Shown here: positions 50,842-57,565 of the stretch, piece after piece
How the letters are laid out: each line of letters opens with the position of its first letter
How positions within the stretch are numbered: the first letter of the stretch is position 1
NCBI GenBank assembly: GCA_943789035.1
Contig: CALSSO010000007.1
Coordinates: 109,319 to 173,318, forward strand
Direction: 5' to 3'
DNA from: an uncultured Flavobacteriaceae bacterium
Lineage (GTDB): Bacteria > Bacteroidota > Bacteroidia > Flavobacteriales > Flavobacteriaceae
Length of the DNA stretch: 64,000 nt
Program-made: the position numbers and the translations under genes
Notes under the pieces: generated by a model
The model's database searches: none
What the model saw: the letters and a program-made list of their open reading frames with translations, nothing else
Told to the model about the DNA's origin: nothing

Positions 50842-51831
50842 ATGAAAATTCTATCTAAACTTATTACTTTTATAGCTCTGTGTTGTGTATGCAGCACTGC
50901 TCAAGCACAATATACCGATGTTATAAACTCGAATCGACCAGGCGCCTCCCAAAGTGCGTTTTCTGTGGGAACCAAAGTATTACAGTTTGAAGTCGGTCCG
51001 TATATGATTAAAGAAAAACGAGAACTTTATCCAAAGTACGAAGTTTCTGGATATGGGGTTGATTTTGCAGCCCATTATGGTTTTTGGAAAGAAGCTCTAG
51101 AATTAAATATCCAAGGGACGTTTCAAAAAGATACACAAACCTATCCCTCCTCGATTGTGGATGTAGAGTATGGTCGTGCAAACTTTAAAAACCTCAATAT
51201 TGGAGCAAAATATTTGGTGTATGACCCTCATAAAAACAAAGACAATAAACCAAACTTGTATAGCTACCATGCTAATAGAGGTTTTAAATGGAGTAGTTTG
51301 ATTCCCGCCGTATCTGTAATTGCTGGTGTGAATTATGACACTAAAGACAATCCATATACAGCTCCAACTGTTGAAGGACTTAGTTATCGTGGAGGTTTAA
51401 TTACACAAAACAATTTTAATGGAGGTTGGGTCTTTATTACAAATTTTATAATGGACCGCATTGGAAGTGACCAAACAGATTTTCATTACATTCTTACACT
51501 GACACACTCCTTCAATCCAAAATGGGTAGTTTTTGGAGAAACACAAGGCATAAAAAGTGAGTTTTACGCAGATAATTTGCTTCGATTTGGAGGCGGTTAT
51601 TTACTGAATAAGAATTTACAATTTGATACGGCTTTGACATTTAATACCAAAAACACACCATCCGTTTTAAGTTTAAGTTTTGGTGCATCGTACCGATTAG
51701 ATCGCCATAAGGATAAAAACAACGTTGATAACGGGACTTCTGCAAAAGACCAAGAGAAACGAAAATCGCGCTTCAAAAATGAAGATAAAAGAAAAAAGAA
51801 GAAGAGAAGTACTAATTTTGAAGAGGACTAG
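50842..51831 (+). CDS. Putative outer-membrane beta-barrel ('transporter', MetA-pathway-like)
   Basis: Signal peptide; INSNRPG...VG...LQFE; alternating beta-strands ending SFGASYR. Confidence 0.7.
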   Translation: MKILSKLITFIALCCVCSTAQAQYTDVINSNRPGASQSAFSVGTKVLQFEVGPYMIKEKRELYPKYEVSGYGVDFAAHYGFWKEALELNIQGTFQKDTQTYPSSIVDVEYGRANFKNLNIGAKYLVYDPHKNKDNKPNLYSYHANRGFKWSSLIPAVSVIAGVNYDTKDNPYTAPTVEGLSYRGGLITQNNFNGGWVFITNFIMDRIGSDQTDFHYILTLTHSFNPKWVVFGETQGIKSEFYADNLLRFGGGYLLNKNLQFDTALTFNTKNTPSVLSLSFGASYRLDRHKDKNNVDNGTSAKDQEKRKSRFKNEDKRKKKKRSTNFEED

Positions 51832-51837
51832 AACAGC

Positions 51838-52953
51838 ATGATTACCATTAAAGAAGCGGTTTCCAAAAAGGAGATAAAACAATTTGTGACATTCCCTTTT
51901 TCACTCTATAAAGACTCCAAGTATTGGGTTCCCCCAATCATTAGCGAAGAGATTAAAATATTTAATAAAAACACCAACCCTGTACTCCAAAATGCGGATG
52001 CTCAATTGTTTCTAGCTTATAAAAACAATACGATTGTAGGGCGTGTTGCCGCCATTATTAATTGGACAGAAATTGGACCTAAAGGCAGTAATAAAGTTCG
52101 ATTTGGGTGGATGGATATGATTGATGACATAGAAGTCACAAAAGCTTTATTGGACACTGTAGAGTCCATTGGAAAAGCGAATAACTTAAACTATATGGAA
52201 GGGCCAATTGGGTTTTCTAACTTAGATAAGGTAGGTGTTCTTACCTATGGCTATGACGAGATTGGTACCATGGTTTCTTGGCACAACCATCCCTACTATG
52301 TGGAGCACTTAAATCAATTAAATTTCAAAGTTGAAAAAGAATACCTAGAACACAAACATCAGTTTAGTGATATTGAAATTGAAAATTCTAATCTACTTGA
52401 AAAGGTTATTAAAGAGCGTTACAACTTAAAGGCTTTAAATTTTACGAGCACAAAAGATCTGATGCCGTATGCAGATAAAATGTTTGATTTATTTAATGAA
52501 AGTTATGCATCCTTGTCGTCATTTGTGGCAATTACAGACATTCAAAAAGCATTTTTAAAGAAGAAGTTTTTAAACTTCATAAACCCAGAATACATTAAGT
52601 TTGTGGTAAATGAGGCCGATGAATTAATTGCTTTTGGGGTTGTAATGCCTTCTTTTGCAGAAGCCTTACAAAAAACAAAAGGTAAGTTATTTCCTTTTGG
52701 GTTTTTGCATATTTTAAAAGCTAAGAACTCAAAAAAAATAAATTTTTATTTAATTGGCATCCATCCTGAATATCAAAAAAAGGGCGTCCATTCCATCCTA
52801 TTTAGTGCATTTCATAAAACTTTTAAAGAGAAAGGAATTCTAGAATGTCGAAGAACTCCAGAATTGGCAAATAACTTAGCAGTTCAAAAATTATGGCGCA
52901 ATTTTAATCCTGTATTGATTAAAAAACGATGTACGTATCGAAAAGATTTGTAG
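51838..52953 (+). CDS. Tandem-GNAT N-acyltransferase, bacterial ceramide-synthase-like
   Basis: FPFSLYK...WVPP, VGRVAA, RFGW, GPIGF, HNHPYY and IGIHPEYQKKG (GNAT motif A). Confidence 0.7.
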   Translation: MITIKEAVSKKEIKQFVTFPFSLYKDSKYWVPPIISEEIKIFNKNTNPVLQNADAQLFLAYKNNTIVGRVAAIINWTEIGPKGSNKVRFGWMDMIDDIEVTKALLDTVESIGKANNLNYMEGPIGFSNLDKVGVLTYGYDEIGTMVSWHNHPYYVEHLNQLNFKVEKEYLEHKHQFSDIEIENSNLLEKVIKERYNLKALNFTSTKDLMPYADKMFDLFNESYASLSSFVAITDIQKAFLKKKFLNFINPEYIKFVVNEADELIAFGVVMPSFAEALQKTKGKLFPFGFLHILKAKNSKKINFYLIGIHPEYQKKGVHSILFSAFHKTFKEKGILECRRTPELANNLAVQKLWRNFNPVLIKKRCTYRKDL

Positions 52954-52955
52954 AA

Positions 52956-54218
52956 CTACTCACCCATTGCAGCTGCAACAGAAGCCGAAAGACGCTTATA
53001 AACTCCTTTTCCTAAGCGTTCTCTAATCACTGAAAATGCTTTTAACGTTTCGTCCACATCTTCTAACGTATGCATAGAGGTTGGTATTAACCTCAGCAAT
53101 ATTAAGCCCTTAGGAATAACAGGATACACTACTATTGAACAGAAAATTCCATAATTTTCACGAAGGTCTTTTACCAAGGCCATCGCTTCAGGAATACTTC
53201 CTTTTAAGTACACAGGAGTTACACAACTTTGGGTGGATCCTAGGTCGAATCCTCTCTCGCGTAATCCCGATTGCAATGCATTTACAATCTTCCAAAGGTT
53301 TTCTTTAAGTTCAGGCATGGTACGAATCATATCCAAACGTTTAAGAGCGCCTTTTACCAACTGCATTTGCAAGGATTTTGCAAACATTTGTGAGCGTAAG
53401 TTATATTTTAAATAATCAATAATTTCTTGATCAGCAGCAATAAAAGCACCTGTACTTGCCATTGATTTGGCAAAGGTTGCAAAATACACATCAATCTCAT
53501 CTTGAACGCCTTGTTCCTGTCCTGCACCTGCTCCCGTTTTTCCAAGCGTTCCAAAACCATGTGCATCATCAACTAAAAATCTAAAATTAAATTTGTCCTT
53601 TAATGCTGCAATTTCTTTTAGCTTCCCTTGTTCGCCTCGCATTCCAAAAACACCTTCTGAAATCACTAAAATACCTCCACCAGTATGTTCGGCCATTTTA
53701 GTCGCACGTTCTAGGTTTTTTTCTAAGCTTTCAATATCGTTGTGTTTGTAAGTAAAACGTTTTCCCATGTGTAGCCGAACCCCATCAATAATACAAGCAT
53801 GCGAATCCACATCATAAACAATAATATCATCCTTTCCAACCAACGCATCAATTGTGGACATGATTCCTTGATAACCAAAATTTAAGAGATAAGTCGCTTC
53901 TTTACTTACAAATTCTGCTAATTCGTTTTGTAATTGTTCATGTAGTGAGGTATGACCAGACATCATTCGAGCGCCCATTGGATAGGCAGCCCCGTAATCA
54001 TTGGCAGCTTCGGCATCGACTTTTCTAACTTCAGGATGATTTGCAAGTCCTAAATAGTCATTTATACTCCATGTGATGACGTCCTTACCTTGAAATTTCA
54101 TGCGGTTGGAAATCTGACCTTCCAGTTTTGGAAACACAAAATAACCTTCTGCTTGGCTTGCCCATTTACCTAAAGGGCCTTTGTCTTTATATATTTTTTC
54201 AAATAAATCTCTCATCAT
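52956..54218 (-). CDS. PLP alpha-oxoamine synthase; probable cysteate-fatty acyltransferase (SulA/CapB)
   Basis: NDYLGL, DDAH, TFAK251S and MFAK281S; downstream of a cysteine-synthase-like gene. Confidence 0.8.
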   Translation of the reverse strand: MMRDLFEKIYKDKGPLGKWASQAEGYFVFPKLEGQISNRMKFQGKDVITWSINDYLGLANHPEVRKVDAEAANDYGAAYPMGARMMSGHTSLHEQLQNELAEFVSKEATYLLNFGYQGIMSTIDALVGKDDIIVYDVDSHACIIDGVRLHMGKRFTYKHNDIESLEKNLERATKMAEHTGGGILVISEGVFGMRGEQGKLKEIAALKDKFNFRFLVDDAHGFGTLGKTGAGAGQEQGVQDEIDVYFATFAKSMASTGAFIAADQEIIDYLKYNLRSQMFAKSLQMQLVKGALKRLDMIRTMPELKENLWKIVNALQSGLRERGFDLGSTQSCVTPVYLKGSIPEAMALVKDLRENYGIFCSIVVYPVIPKGLILLRLIPTSMHTLEDVDETLKAFSVIRERLGKGVYKRLSASVAAAMGE

Positions 54219-54339
54219 AATTCCTAGTTAGTTTGCGATACAAAACTATATAATAATATTCTTAATACATAATAATTTAAGCAATTAATCAGAAACGAAT
54301 ATTGTGTTGATGATTTGGTATTAGAAATTTGAGAGTGAT

Positions 54340-55388
54340 TTACTTAATAAATTCAATGCCTTGTGGCAGCGACTTCATTTCTTTTATCAAAAAAACCTTG
54401 GTCTTCCATCCATTGGTCATTAAATACTTTACTCATGTAGCGTGATCCGTGATCTGGGAAAATTAAAACAACAACATCCGTAGGTTTAAAAGCACCTTGT
54501 TGCTTGAAGTTGTTTTACGGCCTGAACAACCGCTCCGGATGTATAACCTGCAAACAAACCTTCTGTTTGCGCCAGCTCTCGAGCAGTATGCGCGCTTTCT
54601 TCGTCCGTTACCTTGATAAATTCGTCGATTGAATCAAAATCGGTAGCTGTAGGAATTAAATTTTTCCCAAGTCCTTCAATACGGTAGGGATATATTTCAT
54701 TGGGATCAAACTCTCGTGGTTTCGTGGTATTTTTTCAGAACCGAACCATAAGCATCTACTCCTATGATTTTAATATCTGGATTTTGTTCTTTTAAATATT
54801 TTGCAGCCCCTGAGATGGTTCCTCCAGTTCCGCTACATGCAACCAAATGCGTGATCTTACCTTGCGGTCTGCTGCCATAACTCTGGCCCTGTAGTTTTGT
54901 AATGTGCCTCTGTATTTAAACTATTAAAGTATTGGTTTATATATACTGAGCCTTTAATTTCTTTGTGCAAACGTTTGGCGACTTCGTAATAGGAACGGGG
55001 GTCATCTGCATTTACATGTGCCGGGCATACATATACTTTTGCTCCCATACTCTTGAGCATGTCAATTTTATCTAAAGATGATTTTGAACTGACCGCTAAT
55101 ACACATTTGTACCCTTTAATGATGCTGACCATTGCAATACTAAAACCCGTGTTACCAGAAGTTGTTTCAATAATCGTATCTCCTGGTTTTAGAATGCCTT
55201 TCTTTTCAGCCTCTTCAATAATATGAAGCGCAATACGGTCTTTAGAGGATTGTCCTGGATTGAAAGCATTCTAACTTGGCTATGAACGTCCCCGGAGAAC
55301 CCGACAAGATGGTACTTAACTTCACTAGAGGCGTGTTCCCAACGAGCTCCAATACATTATCAAATATCAATTTATCTTTATTTACCAA
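54340..55388 (-). pseudogene. PLP cysteine-synthase-family gene (probable cysteate synthase, CapA-like) broken by single-base insertions
   Basis: Reassembles as [46 protein letters not shown] (~347 aa) after removing bases near 55268, 54862, 54717, 54506 and probably 54382. Likely sequencing errors. Confidence 0.8.
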
Positions 55389-55432
55389 ATTTGTGATTTT
55401 TGTGTGACAAATTTACACTATTTTTTTCAAAC

Positions 55433-57565
55433 CTATTTTATAATGGATTCTAGATCCAATAAAAAAGCATACTCCGCAGCCACTTCTTTCAAGGCTTCAA
55501 AACGTCCAGAAGCACCGCCATGACCTGCCTCCATATTGGTTTTAAGATAGAGTTGAGATGTGTTTTTGTTTTGAGATCGTAAGCGTGCAACCCATTTGGC
55601 TGGCTCCCAATATTGAACTTGGGAATCGTGAAGTCCCGTAGTTACTAACATATTTGGGTAGAGCTTATTGGTGACATTGTCATAGGGCGAATACGATTTC
55701 ATGTACTCATAATAGTCTTTTTCATTTGGGTTCCCCCATTCATCATATTCTCCTGTAGTAAGCGGAATACTATCGTCCAACATAGTTGTTACCACATCCA
55801 CAAAAGGAACCTGAGCAACCACTCCATTGTATAATTCAGGAGCTAAATTTACAACTGCTCCCATTAATAAACCACCTGCACTGCCACCCATAGCATACTG
55901 ATGCTTGGCAGTAGTGTACTTATTTTCAATCAAATATTTTGAACAATCTACAAAATCTGAAAAGGTATTTTTCTTGTTAAATAATTTTCCATCTTCATAC
56001 CATTGACGGCCCAAATATTCGCCCCCTCTAATATGAGCAATTGCAAAAATAAAACCACGATCTAATAGACTCAGTCGAACCGTTGAAAAATAAGGATCTA
56101 TTGTGTTTCCGTACGAACCATACGCATACAATAACAATGGAGTTTCGGACGATTTTTCAGTATCCACATGGCGTATCAATGAAATAGGGATTTGAGTTCC
56201 ATCCGCAGCCGTTGCCCATAAGCGTTCTGAAGTGTAGTTTTCTTTTTTAAATTTACCTCCTAATACTTCTTGTTCTTTTTTGATGGTTTTTGTCTTAGTA
56301 ACCATATCGAAGTCAATTATAGATGATGGAGTTGTTAAAGACTGATAGCCATATCTTAAAACGCTGGTATCAAAATCAATATTAGTGGTGGTATAAGCCG
56401 TATAGGTTTCACTCTCAAAAGGAAGGTAATAACTGCCTGATCCATCCCAACGTTTTATGTGGATTTGATTCAGGCCATTTTCACGTTCCGAAACCACCAA
56501 AAAGTCTTTAAATATTTCGATGTCTTCAAGTAATACATTTTCTCGGTGTGGAATTACATCGTTCCAGTATTTTTTTTGAGTTTGAGTTTCAGAAGTTTTA
56601 GAGAGTTTAAAATTTTGAGCCCTATCGGCATTAGAAACGATATAAAATGAATCTTCGTAATGTGAAATACTATACTCTAAACCGCGTGTTCTGGGTTGAA
56701 ATACTTTAAAATCACCATCGGGAGTGTTGGCATTTAAAATTTGATATTCAGTCGTTAAGGTGCTGTAACTCACAATAACTAGATATTTTTTAGACTTGGT
56801 TTTATAAACGCTCACTCCAAAAGTATCATCAGTTTCTTCATAAATTAATTCATCTGATTTTTGATCGGTATTCAGTCGGTGTTTGTAAATTGCTTCCGAT
56901 CGTAAGGTTGTTTCATCTTTCTTTGTATAAAACAGAGTTTTATTGTCATTTGCCCACGTACTCCCCCCTGTCGTATTTGAAATCTCATCCTTTAAAACTG
57001 TATTGGTTTTAAGGTCTTTAATATGCAATGTGTATTGACGTCTGCCTGTGGTGTCTATGCCATAAGAAACCAAATCATTATTGAGGTTTATGTTCAACCC
57101 TACCAATCTAAAATATGAATGATCTTTAGCCATTTCATTACAATCAAACAAAAGTTCTTCCTCTGCTTCTAAGGTTTCCTTTTTTCGAGTGTAGATGGGA
57201 TAATCTTTCCCTTTTTCATATTTGGTGATGTACCAATACCCATTGTACTTATAAGGAACAGAACTGTCATCTTCTTTGATTCTTGACTTCATTTCTTCAA
57301 ATAAAGATATCTGAAACTCCTTTGTGTGCGTCGTATGGGCATTATAATAATCATTTTCTTTGTTGAGATAATCAATCACTTCCGGATTTTCTCTATCGTT
57401 TAACCAATAAAATTCATCAACACGTACATCGTCATGAATTGTTAAATTTTTAGGAATTTGTTTTGCTAATGGAGCGTTTGGTAATTCAGACATTGAGTTT
57501 TGAGTCTTAGTATCACAAGAAAAAAGTGAACTTATTAAAATGAGAGATAAGAATTGGCGTTTCAT
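55433..57565 (-). CDS. ptrB: Oligopeptidase B (S9A), lipoprotein
   Basis: YGSYG, GGSAGG, HDSQV and AGHGG motifs; lipobox LFSC. Confidence 0.92.
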   Translation of the reverse strand: MKRQFLSLILISSLFSCDTKTQNSMSELPNAPLAKQIPKNLTIHDDVRVDEFYWLNDRENPEVIDYLNKENDYYNAHTTHTKEFQISLFEEMKSRIKEDDSSVPYKYNGYWYITKYEKGKDYPIYTRKKETLEAEEELLFDCNEMAKDHSYFRLVGLNINLNNDLVSYGIDTTGRRQYTLHIKDLKTNTVLKDEISNTTGGSTWANDNKTLFYTKKDETTLRSEAIYKHRLNTDQKSDELIYEETDDTFGVSVYKTKSKKYLVIVSYSTLTTEYQILNANTPDGDFKVFQPRTRGLEYSISHYEDSFYIVSNADRAQNFKLSKTSETQTQKKYWNDVIPHRENVLLEDIEIFKDFLVVSERENGLNQIHIKRWDGSGSYYLPFESETYTAYTTTNIDFDTSVLRYGYQSLTTPSSIIDFDMVTKTKTIKKEQEVLGGKFKKENYTSERLWATAADGTQIPISLIRHVDTEKSSETPLLLYAYGSYGNTIDPYFSTVRLSLLDRGFIFAIAHIRGGEYLGRQWYEDGKLFNKKNTFSDFVDCSKYLIENKYTTAKHQYAMGGSAGGLLMGAVVNLAPELYNGVVAQVPFVDVVTTMLDDSIPLTTGEYDEWGNPNEKDYYEYMKSYSPYDNVTNKLYPNMLVTTGLHDSQVQYWEPAKWVARLRSQNKNTSQLYLKTNMEAGHGGASGRFEALKEVAAEYAFLLDLESIIK

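Follow-up and report, generated by a model that had tools for sequence, protein, structure and literature searches.

A capA-capB gene pair predicted to form the core of capnine (sulfonolipid) biosynthesis in an uncultured marine flavobacterium, with capA most probably broken by assembly errors

The locus raises the question of whether two neighbouring minus-strand genes of an uncultured marine Formosa-like flavobacterium encode the core of capnine (sulfonolipid) biosynthesis, and how the interrupted state of one of them is to be read. The genes, capA and capB, lie at positions 52956-55388 (minus strand) of the 64,000-nucleotide stretch of DNA that was analysed (the window), and they probably constitute the two-gene core of the pathway, the breaks in capA being assembly errors. 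The initial annotation had proposed a sulfonolipid locus at 51838-55388, a reading that is borne out in that both genes are orthologues of characterised capnine enzymes (CapB with 709 bits; CapA through NCBIfam NF053679). The span does contain capA and capB, but position 51838 belongs to a third, plus-strand gene, which starts there and had been omitted. Likewise, the description of the genes as hidden under generic annotations fits the acyltransferase, which scores below every NCBIfam equivalog cut-off, but not CapA, for which an equivalog model (NF053679) exists.

The capB gene (52956..54218, minus strand) is an intact ORF of 420 aa belonging to the cysteate-C-fatty acyltransferase (CFAT)/SulA family, and its product is the sole alpha-oxoamine synthase in the assembly at E <= 1e-10. 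It matched the crystallised CapB/CFAT of Capnocytophaga ochracea (PDB 28EH) over the full length with 709 bits and Alistipes SulA (7U7H) with 562 bits, far above the other alpha-oxoamine synthases, i.e. serine palmitoyltransferase (SPT; 242 bits), KBL (196 bits) and BioF (147 bits), so that the comparison with SulA and CapB proposed at the outset came out clearly on their side. The catalytic PLP lysine is K251 in the motif TFAKSMA (K250 in the C. ochracea enzyme), and a HMMER alignment placed RSVMFSAS of the Sphingobacterium SPT opposite RSQMFAKS of the capB product, with K281 aligning to the A of FSAS; both features had been reported from the sequence before and were seen again here. K281 closes the stretch M278-F279-A280-K281 and corresponds to the trans-subunit lysine, which is K280 in C. 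ochracea CFAT and K281 in SulA. Furthermore, all 18 residues around the PLP-cysteate adduct, as listed in the 2026 structure paper (PMC13692747), are kept in the capB product, including N53, F114-G115-Y116, H140, K251 and K281. That is, N52, G81, A82, F113-G114-Y115, H139, C141, E187, D216, H219, F245, T247 and A249 of C. ochracea are identical in capB at an offset of +1. In the CFAT crystal it is N52, H139 and K250 that contact the sulfonate; K280 forms a hydrogen bond to the phosphate of PLP and is required for activity, the K280A variant having <10% activity (PMC13692747). The lysine singled out by the initial annotation is conserved, but the sulfonate recognition attributed to it stems from an earlier SulA docking model, whereas the crystal has it on the PLP phosphate. 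Altogether, the assignment of the capB product as a CapB orthologue is supported, and its predicted cysteate-C-fatty acyltransferase activity is that of the characterised orthologues.

The second gene, capA (54340..55388, minus strand; TTG start at 55388, stop at 54340-54342), belongs to the cysteate synthase family NF053679 and is split by five insertions of 1 bp each, located at window positions 55266, 54865, 54716, 54508 and about 54364-54366. The insertions, which were placed by comparison with four congeners and eight same-species contigs, result in five frame segments and lie outside long homopolymers. NF053679 is the best family match of the fragments (272.4, 94.1, 123.1, 50 and 27.9 bits), and, with the frame interrupted as given, no single protein of the window passes the cut-off of 600 bits. 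The PLP-lysine motif S-x-K-D-R of the cysteine-synthase fold is present in the second segment, as NPGQSSKDR. A cysteine-synthase-family gene directly upstream of the synthase had indeed been recorded, correctly as to strand and to the start at 55388, but its five insertions and the lack of an open frame had gone unmentioned. An exact look-up of the 91-aa capA fragment ORF returned no match, which is uninformative.

Deletion of the five bases leaves capA open over 347 codons without a stop, and comparison of the corrected gene with congeners gave dN/dS values of 0.03-0.04, as between intact orthologues. Ten independent metagenome contigs of the same species, with an identity of 99.0-99.5% over 8.2 kb, encode an intact capA of 347 aa, and the five capA insertions are the only indel differences between the window and these contigs. 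The intact conspecific CapA scored 629.8 bits against NF053679 (cut-off 600), and among 18 congeneric species 15 carry an unbroken capA above the cut-off, with scores of 626-635 bits. The assignment of the upstream gene as a CapA orthologue is thus supported, with cysteate synthase activity predicted from the characterised orthologues.

Most probably, the five insertions are assembly errors and capA is intact in the organism itself. This reading is favoured because the ten conspecific contigs are intact, the frame opens on correction, dN/dS is low, all five changes are +1, and a patch of errors occurs elsewhere in the assembly. In that other region, about 4.5 kb on contig C5 (119900-124400), 43 insertions particular to this assembly were found against 1 deletion, and purH, mreB and a TonB receptor gene are broken, all three being intact in six contigs with 99.7% identity. 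The remainder of the 64-kb window showed no other gap >650 bp and no other broken long ORF, which indicates that the errors would be local or patchy rather than uniform; on this ground, and with an ORF coverage of about 91% genome-wide, evenly distributed sequencing error was rejected as an origin of the capA breaks. Programmed +1 frameshifting at the five sites was set aside, the conspecific genes having no such sites, and an old pseudogene was rejected on account of the dN/dS values and the absence of a stop once the frame is corrected. False pseudogenes are created by such patches of single-base insertions, and other findings from the same genome need to be checked for them.

Apart from the insertions, the window differs from eight conspecific contigs by unique substitutions: capA has 22 of them and capB none, and the final 110 codons of the neighbouring oligopeptidase B gene have 6. 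Among the 21 capA codons in a window-unique state, 17 changes are synonymous and 4 nonsynonymous, and all six at the 3′ end of the oligopeptidase B gene are synonymous. Since the substitutions are almost all synonymous, the tract that is dense in them (54289..55754) looks like a diverged allele or a recombination import. Two exact-pattern scans did not find the diverged capA allele in metagenome contigs, a result that is uninformative, and no unbroken copy of precisely this allele came to light.

The opposing explanation is that capA is a genuine, very recent and strain-specific pseudogene, CapB having been kept with cysteate coming from the surroundings or another route, or sulfonolipids being in the process of loss. 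It could appeal to the fact that capA as given, with its five frameshifts, cannot be translated, and to insertions that avoid long homopolymers. Moreover, the allele is distinct, its 22 unique substitutions being absent from the eight conspecific contigs and from both metagenome scans, and would not simply be the population sequence with errors added; loss can occur in the genus, one congener (G008, 92% complete) lacking a capB orthologue as well as any capA above the cut-off. However, the capA indels are all insertions, the corrected frame has no premature stop and dN/dS is 0.03-0.04, and neutral decay giving five indels should have left many nonsynonymous changes and some deletions, whereas 17 of the 21 window-unique codons are synonymous. 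The same insertion-only pattern (43 to 1) affects the essential genes purH and mreB in the same assembly, and the adjoining capB, with no unique substitution, shows no relaxation. We consider a genuine pseudogene unlikely, and it is a shade more doubtful that the insertions are real and that a bloom-associated strain has just lost its cysteate synthase with CapB perfectly conserved. If this were true, sulfonolipid synthesis would depend on cysteate or related sulfonates from algae or neighbours, which would make this one strain auxotrophic for a head group of its membrane lipids.

The preferred reading, an intact capnine gene pair, could also fail on the side of the synthase, were the enzyme at 52956-54218 an SPT, a KBL or a BioF and the product of the locus a sphingolipid or another compound. 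The best named NCBIfam match of the capB product is in fact the CFB-type SPT model NF047600 (294 bits), and NCBIfam has no competing CapB model. This score is nevertheless far under the SPT cut-off of 640, the crystallised CFATs match much better than SPT (709 and 562 versus 242 bits), the CFAT-specific pocket residues are all kept, and the six CFAT homologues assayed in PMC13692747 all preferred cysteate. In addition, capA adjoins the synthase gene in 79 of 80 loci. An enzyme of another specificity is thus hardly credible, and the synthase would be better named cysteate-C-fatty acyltransferase than a generic aminotransferase or BioF.

capA lies directly upstream of capB in 79 of the 80 Flavobacteriaceae loci, i.e. 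the pair is near-universal there, and oligopeptidase B (S9 peptidase; 55433..57565, minus strand), a conserved neighbour outside the pathway, is found upstream of capA in 76 of the 80. Of 151 Bacteroidota genomes sampled, 53 had a capB orthologue. The two genes are separated by a spacer of 121 bp (54219..54339, minus strand), which contains TAGTTTTG (54248-54241, minus strand), a putative -7 motif that precedes the capB ATG by about 23 nt. A further putative motif of this type, TAAATTTG (55408..55415, minus strand), is located some 20 nt ahead of the start of capA. The Bacteroidota -7 promoter consensus is TAnnTTTG, which TAGTTTTG fits, and the two motifs may represent promoter elements of capB and capA, respectively.

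The third gene, a GNAT-like ORF of 371 aa (51838..52953, plus strand), is convergent with capB and gave weak Pfam GNAT matches only, with no NCBIfam match and no PDB relative. In 53 of the 80 Flavobacteriaceae loci, a GNAT-like gene is located no more than 6 kb from capB. Among 150 Bacteroidota genomes, homologues at E <= 1e-10 were found in 46 of 52 capB-positive and 90 of 98 capB-negative genomes, and close homologues (E < 1e-68) in 16 of 52 and 18 of 98, respectively. The ORF was rejected as the missing capnine N-acyltransferase, given this presence across Bacteroidota without specific association with capB.

In the proposed pathway, CapA, a PLP enzyme, would convert O-phospho-L-serine and sulfite into L-cysteate, which CapB, a PLP-dependent alpha-oxoamine synthase, would join to a fatty acyl thioester in a decarboxylating condensation, yielding 3-dehydrocapnine. 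Reduction of 3-dehydrocapnine to capnine would be carried out by a short-chain dehydrogenase (SDR) encoded at an unlinked locus, and an as yet unnamed N-acyltransferase would form N-acyl-capnines. The best reductase (CapC) candidate is a KDSR-like SDR of 267 aa on another contig (C3:281176-281979), which matched NF049977, the model for bacterial 3-ketodihydrosphingosine reductase (KDSR), end to end with 270.5 bits (cut-off 400). That CapC is not in the window, as had been stated initially, agrees with the published 3-ketocapnine reductases (KCRs) being unclustered SDRs (PMC11211663). A paralogue on contig C8 (38815-39786) was rejected as a second cysteate synthase, with 461 bits for CapA (cut-off 600), 424 for CBS and 349 for cysteine synthase A. 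It is taken to be a different, CBS-like enzyme because it is below the CapA cut-off and its type co-occurs with true capA in congeners, and nothing observed points to its standing in for CapA.

CapA, CapB/SulA and the capnine pathway are already characterised biochemically and structurally, so that the locus is an ordinary capnine gene pair and there is little new in it; its presence predicts that an abundant uncultured marine lineage carries sulfonolipids. The closest counterpart is the pair of C. ochracea, characterised by Liu et al. 2022 (as cited in PMC12927429 and PMC10191378). The gene order, capA then capB, is identical, the CapB proteins align without gaps over 419 residues (709 bits; about 77% identity, estimated by eye) and share the catalytic lysine, the trans-subunit lysine and the sulfonate-contacting residues, and the CapA proteins fall into one NCBIfam equivalog family. 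C. ochracea is an oral commensal, whereas the window comes from an uncultured small-genome marine flavobacterium whose capA, unlike that of C. ochracea, is frameshifted in the assembly. SulA of Alistipes finegoldii (7U7H) and Fjoh_2419 of Flavobacterium johnsoniae share family and reaction with the window CapB, the number K281 being common to it and SulA. Cysteate in Alistipes, however, is derived from an archaeal-type cysteate synthase and not from a CapA homologue (PMC10191378), whereas the window organism has the CapA-type enzyme typical of environmental Bacteroidota. The SPT of Sphingobacterium multivorum (3A2B/8GUH) has the fold-type I alpha-oxoamine synthase scaffold and the PLP chemistry in common with the window CapB, but it matches with 242 bits only and has MFSAS in place of MFAKS, the pocket of the window enzyme being remodelled for cysteate. 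As for the reductases, the enzymes to set beside the SDR of the window organism are KdsR BT_0972, CapC of Ornithobacterium rhinotracheale (QAR30703.1) and the KCRs of C. gleum and A. finegoldii; the SDR matches the KDSR model below the KdsR cut-off, and, like the published KCRs, the candidate on contig C3 is unlinked to capAB.

The interval 54219-55432 (1.2 kb, minus strand), upstream of the 420-aa capB ORF (52956-54218, minus strand), is the sole place in the 64-kb window without a long ORF. Three-frame translation revealed there a single cysteine-synthase-like protein with five frame jumps, whereas capB itself is intact and convergent with a 371-aa GNAT-like ORF on the plus strand (51838-52953). 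The initial annotation had placed two features of a sulfonolipid locus at 51838-55388; the synthase and the cysteine-synthase-like gene are both there, but the interval holds three features. TAnnTTTG-type motifs, putative -7 promoter elements, precede both capA and capB.

CapB aligned gap-free (residues 2-420 to 1-419) with the C. ochracea 'cysteate-C-fatty acyltransferase' (CFAT; 28EH) at 709 bits, compared to 562 bits for Alistipes SulA (7U7H) and 242 bits for serine palmitoyltransferases (SPTs). NCBIfam has no CapB model, and the best named match there was the CFB-type SPT, at 294 bits versus the 640 required. [quoted passage not shown] Thus, K251, K281 and the RSQMFAKS motif had been read correctly, the corresponding site in SPTs being MFSAS. 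The accompanying idea that the lysine of this motif recognises the sulfonate originated in an older docking model: in the C. ochracea CFAT crystal it is N52, H139 and K250 that bond the sulfonate, whereas the equivalent lysine, K280, makes a backbone bond to the PLP phosphate and is needed for activity (PMC13692747). No alpha-oxoamine synthase besides CapB was found in the assembly. On all sequence criteria CapB is a predicted member of the CFAT family.

The neighbouring GNAT-like ORF is one member of a large, functionally uncharacterised family, named 'GTP cyclohydrolase' in some NCBI records, which looks like a mis-annotation. It gave only weak GNAT matches in Pfam, and no solved structural relative was found. 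It often neighbours capB in Flavobacteriaceae, and its distribution across Bacteroidota revealed no phyletic link with that of capB. The comparison thus lends no support to the ORF as a specific enzyme of capnine N-acylation. In 80 Flavobacteriaceae loci, this ORF and a MetA-pathway-type outer-membrane barrel (50842-51831 in the window) were each found 53 times, and together in 51.

The best NCBIfam match of the frame segments of capA (54340-55388, minus strand) was NF053679, 'cysteate synthase CapA' (272, 94 and 123 bits); adding two smaller pieces extends the coverage to model positions 2-329. Fifteen of the 18 other congeneric species carry an intact capA of 346-347 aa scoring above the 600-bit cut-off, located between oligopeptidase B and capB. 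Alignment with four congeners showed that the window gene differs by exactly five 1-bp insertions, which comparison with same-species contigs likewise placed at 55266, 54865, 54716, 54508 and ~54364-54366 on the minus strand. None of the five sites has a long homopolymer. The exact CapB protein sequence occurs on at least 24 metagenome contigs; ten of these, from the same species, were compared and share 99.0-99.5% identity with the window across 8.2 kb, with identical gene order, and all ten encode an intact 347-aa CapA (629.8 bits to NF053679). The conspecific gene qualifies as CapA, while the window sequence formally falls outside the family because of its frameshifts.

The five insertions are the sole window-specific indels in the 8.2 kb compared. 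When the five bases were removed for analysis only, capA read as 347 codons without a stop, and its dN/dS against congeners was 0.03-0.04, the value found between intact orthologues; judged by its coding sequence, the window capA shows no decay. Genome-wide ORF coverage is normal (~91%), and there are 43 gaps of at least 600 bp without long ORFs, several resembling multi-frameshift genes. One such region outside the window was inspected in detail (G000:C5:119500-126000 of the source assembly, locus L029) and there the genes for a TonB-dependent receptor, PurH and MreB are all fragmented. In six metagenome contigs of 99.7% identity purH (510 aa) and mreB (342 aa) are intact, relative to which the ~4.5-kb C5 patch has 43 1-bp insertions of its own versus one deletion; mreC and mreD, directly downstream, show no such errors, and the patch has the look of unpolished long-read sequence. 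It is unlikely that a free-living flavobacterium would lose mreB and purH by dozens of insertions without accompanying substitutions, and the assembly therefore contains insertion-error patches. The changes in capA, five insertions and no deletion, match this signature, and an assembly artefact is the strongly favoured explanation of the breaks. We regard a real, very recent inactivation of capA specific to this strain as improbable. Further gaps lie at C2:125295-126697, C6:100865-104212, C6:176806-177796 and C3:186641-188592, with same-strand open segments of 45-160 aa in alternating frames, and probably represent additional patches of insertion errors or else pseudogenes.

The capA region also carries a probable diverged allele. 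Window-unique substitutions cluster in 54289-55754 (~1.5 kb, capA and the 3′ end of oligopeptidase B), where 29 substitutions, nearly all synonymous, are absent from all eight conspecific contigs compared; the flanks, capB included, have 0-1. Twenty-two fall in capA (21 codons, 17 synonymous and four nonsynonymous changes), six in the oligopeptidase B end, all synonymous, and none in capB. This pattern marks the capA tract as a probable diverged allele shaped by purifying selection, rather than by decay or random error, and the tract looks like a recombination import or another strain haplotype stitched into the assembly. The allele was not found elsewhere in two exact-pattern scans of metagenome contigs or by exact look-up of a 91-aa fragment ORF, and the allele itself has therefore not been seen in intact form.

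As the initial annotation had stated, the reductase lies outside the window. Published 3-ketocapnine reductases are unclustered short-chain dehydrogenases (SDRs; PMC11211663). The source genome has seven SDRs, one of which (C3:281176-281979, locus L123, 267 aa) matched the NCBIfam model of bacterial 3-ketodihydrosphingosine reductase (KdsR) end to end, scoring 270 bits where the cut-off is 400. Because no SPT was found in the assembly, this SDR would be the best candidate for CapC, the 3-dehydrocapnine reductase. The assembly also encodes an intact CBS-like paralogue with the cysteine-synthase fold (C8:38815-39786, locus L001), with scores of 461 (CapA), 424 (CBS) and 349 bits (CysK-A), each under its cut-off. 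It accompanies the true capA in most congeners, and in one of them (G001) is itself interrupted by four stop codons. Separately, a 2723-codon open frame at C4:119697-127865 runs off the contig end; its opposite-strand ORFs are regularly spaced at ~615 nt, suggesting internal repeats, and it is therefore probably a giant repetitive surface protein.

Among the best 80 Flavobacteriaceae loci, capA is directly upstream of capB in 79 and preceded by oligopeptidase B in 76. Of 151 Bacteroidota genomes sampled, 53 have a capB orthologue (E <= 1e-100); one congener, 92% complete, has neither capA nor capB. The nearest named record is an uncultured Formosa sp. MAG (97% CapB identity). The two genes are not contiguous in every relative: some have an additional 1.5-2 kb between them (L018:2536-3984 in G011; L040:3925-6000). 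The insert in G011, a complete 2.7-Mb congener, carries small ORFs; read by eye, a 131-aa ORF may be a PIN/VapC-type toxin, with an adjoining 81-aa partner. As by-products, the analysis gives the acyltransferase gene a better name, cysteate-C-fatty acyltransferase, and warns of false pseudogenes in this assembly. The locus is of a kind already known from the literature, the CapA/CapB pair described in Capnocytophaga and Flavobacterium, here in a new host.
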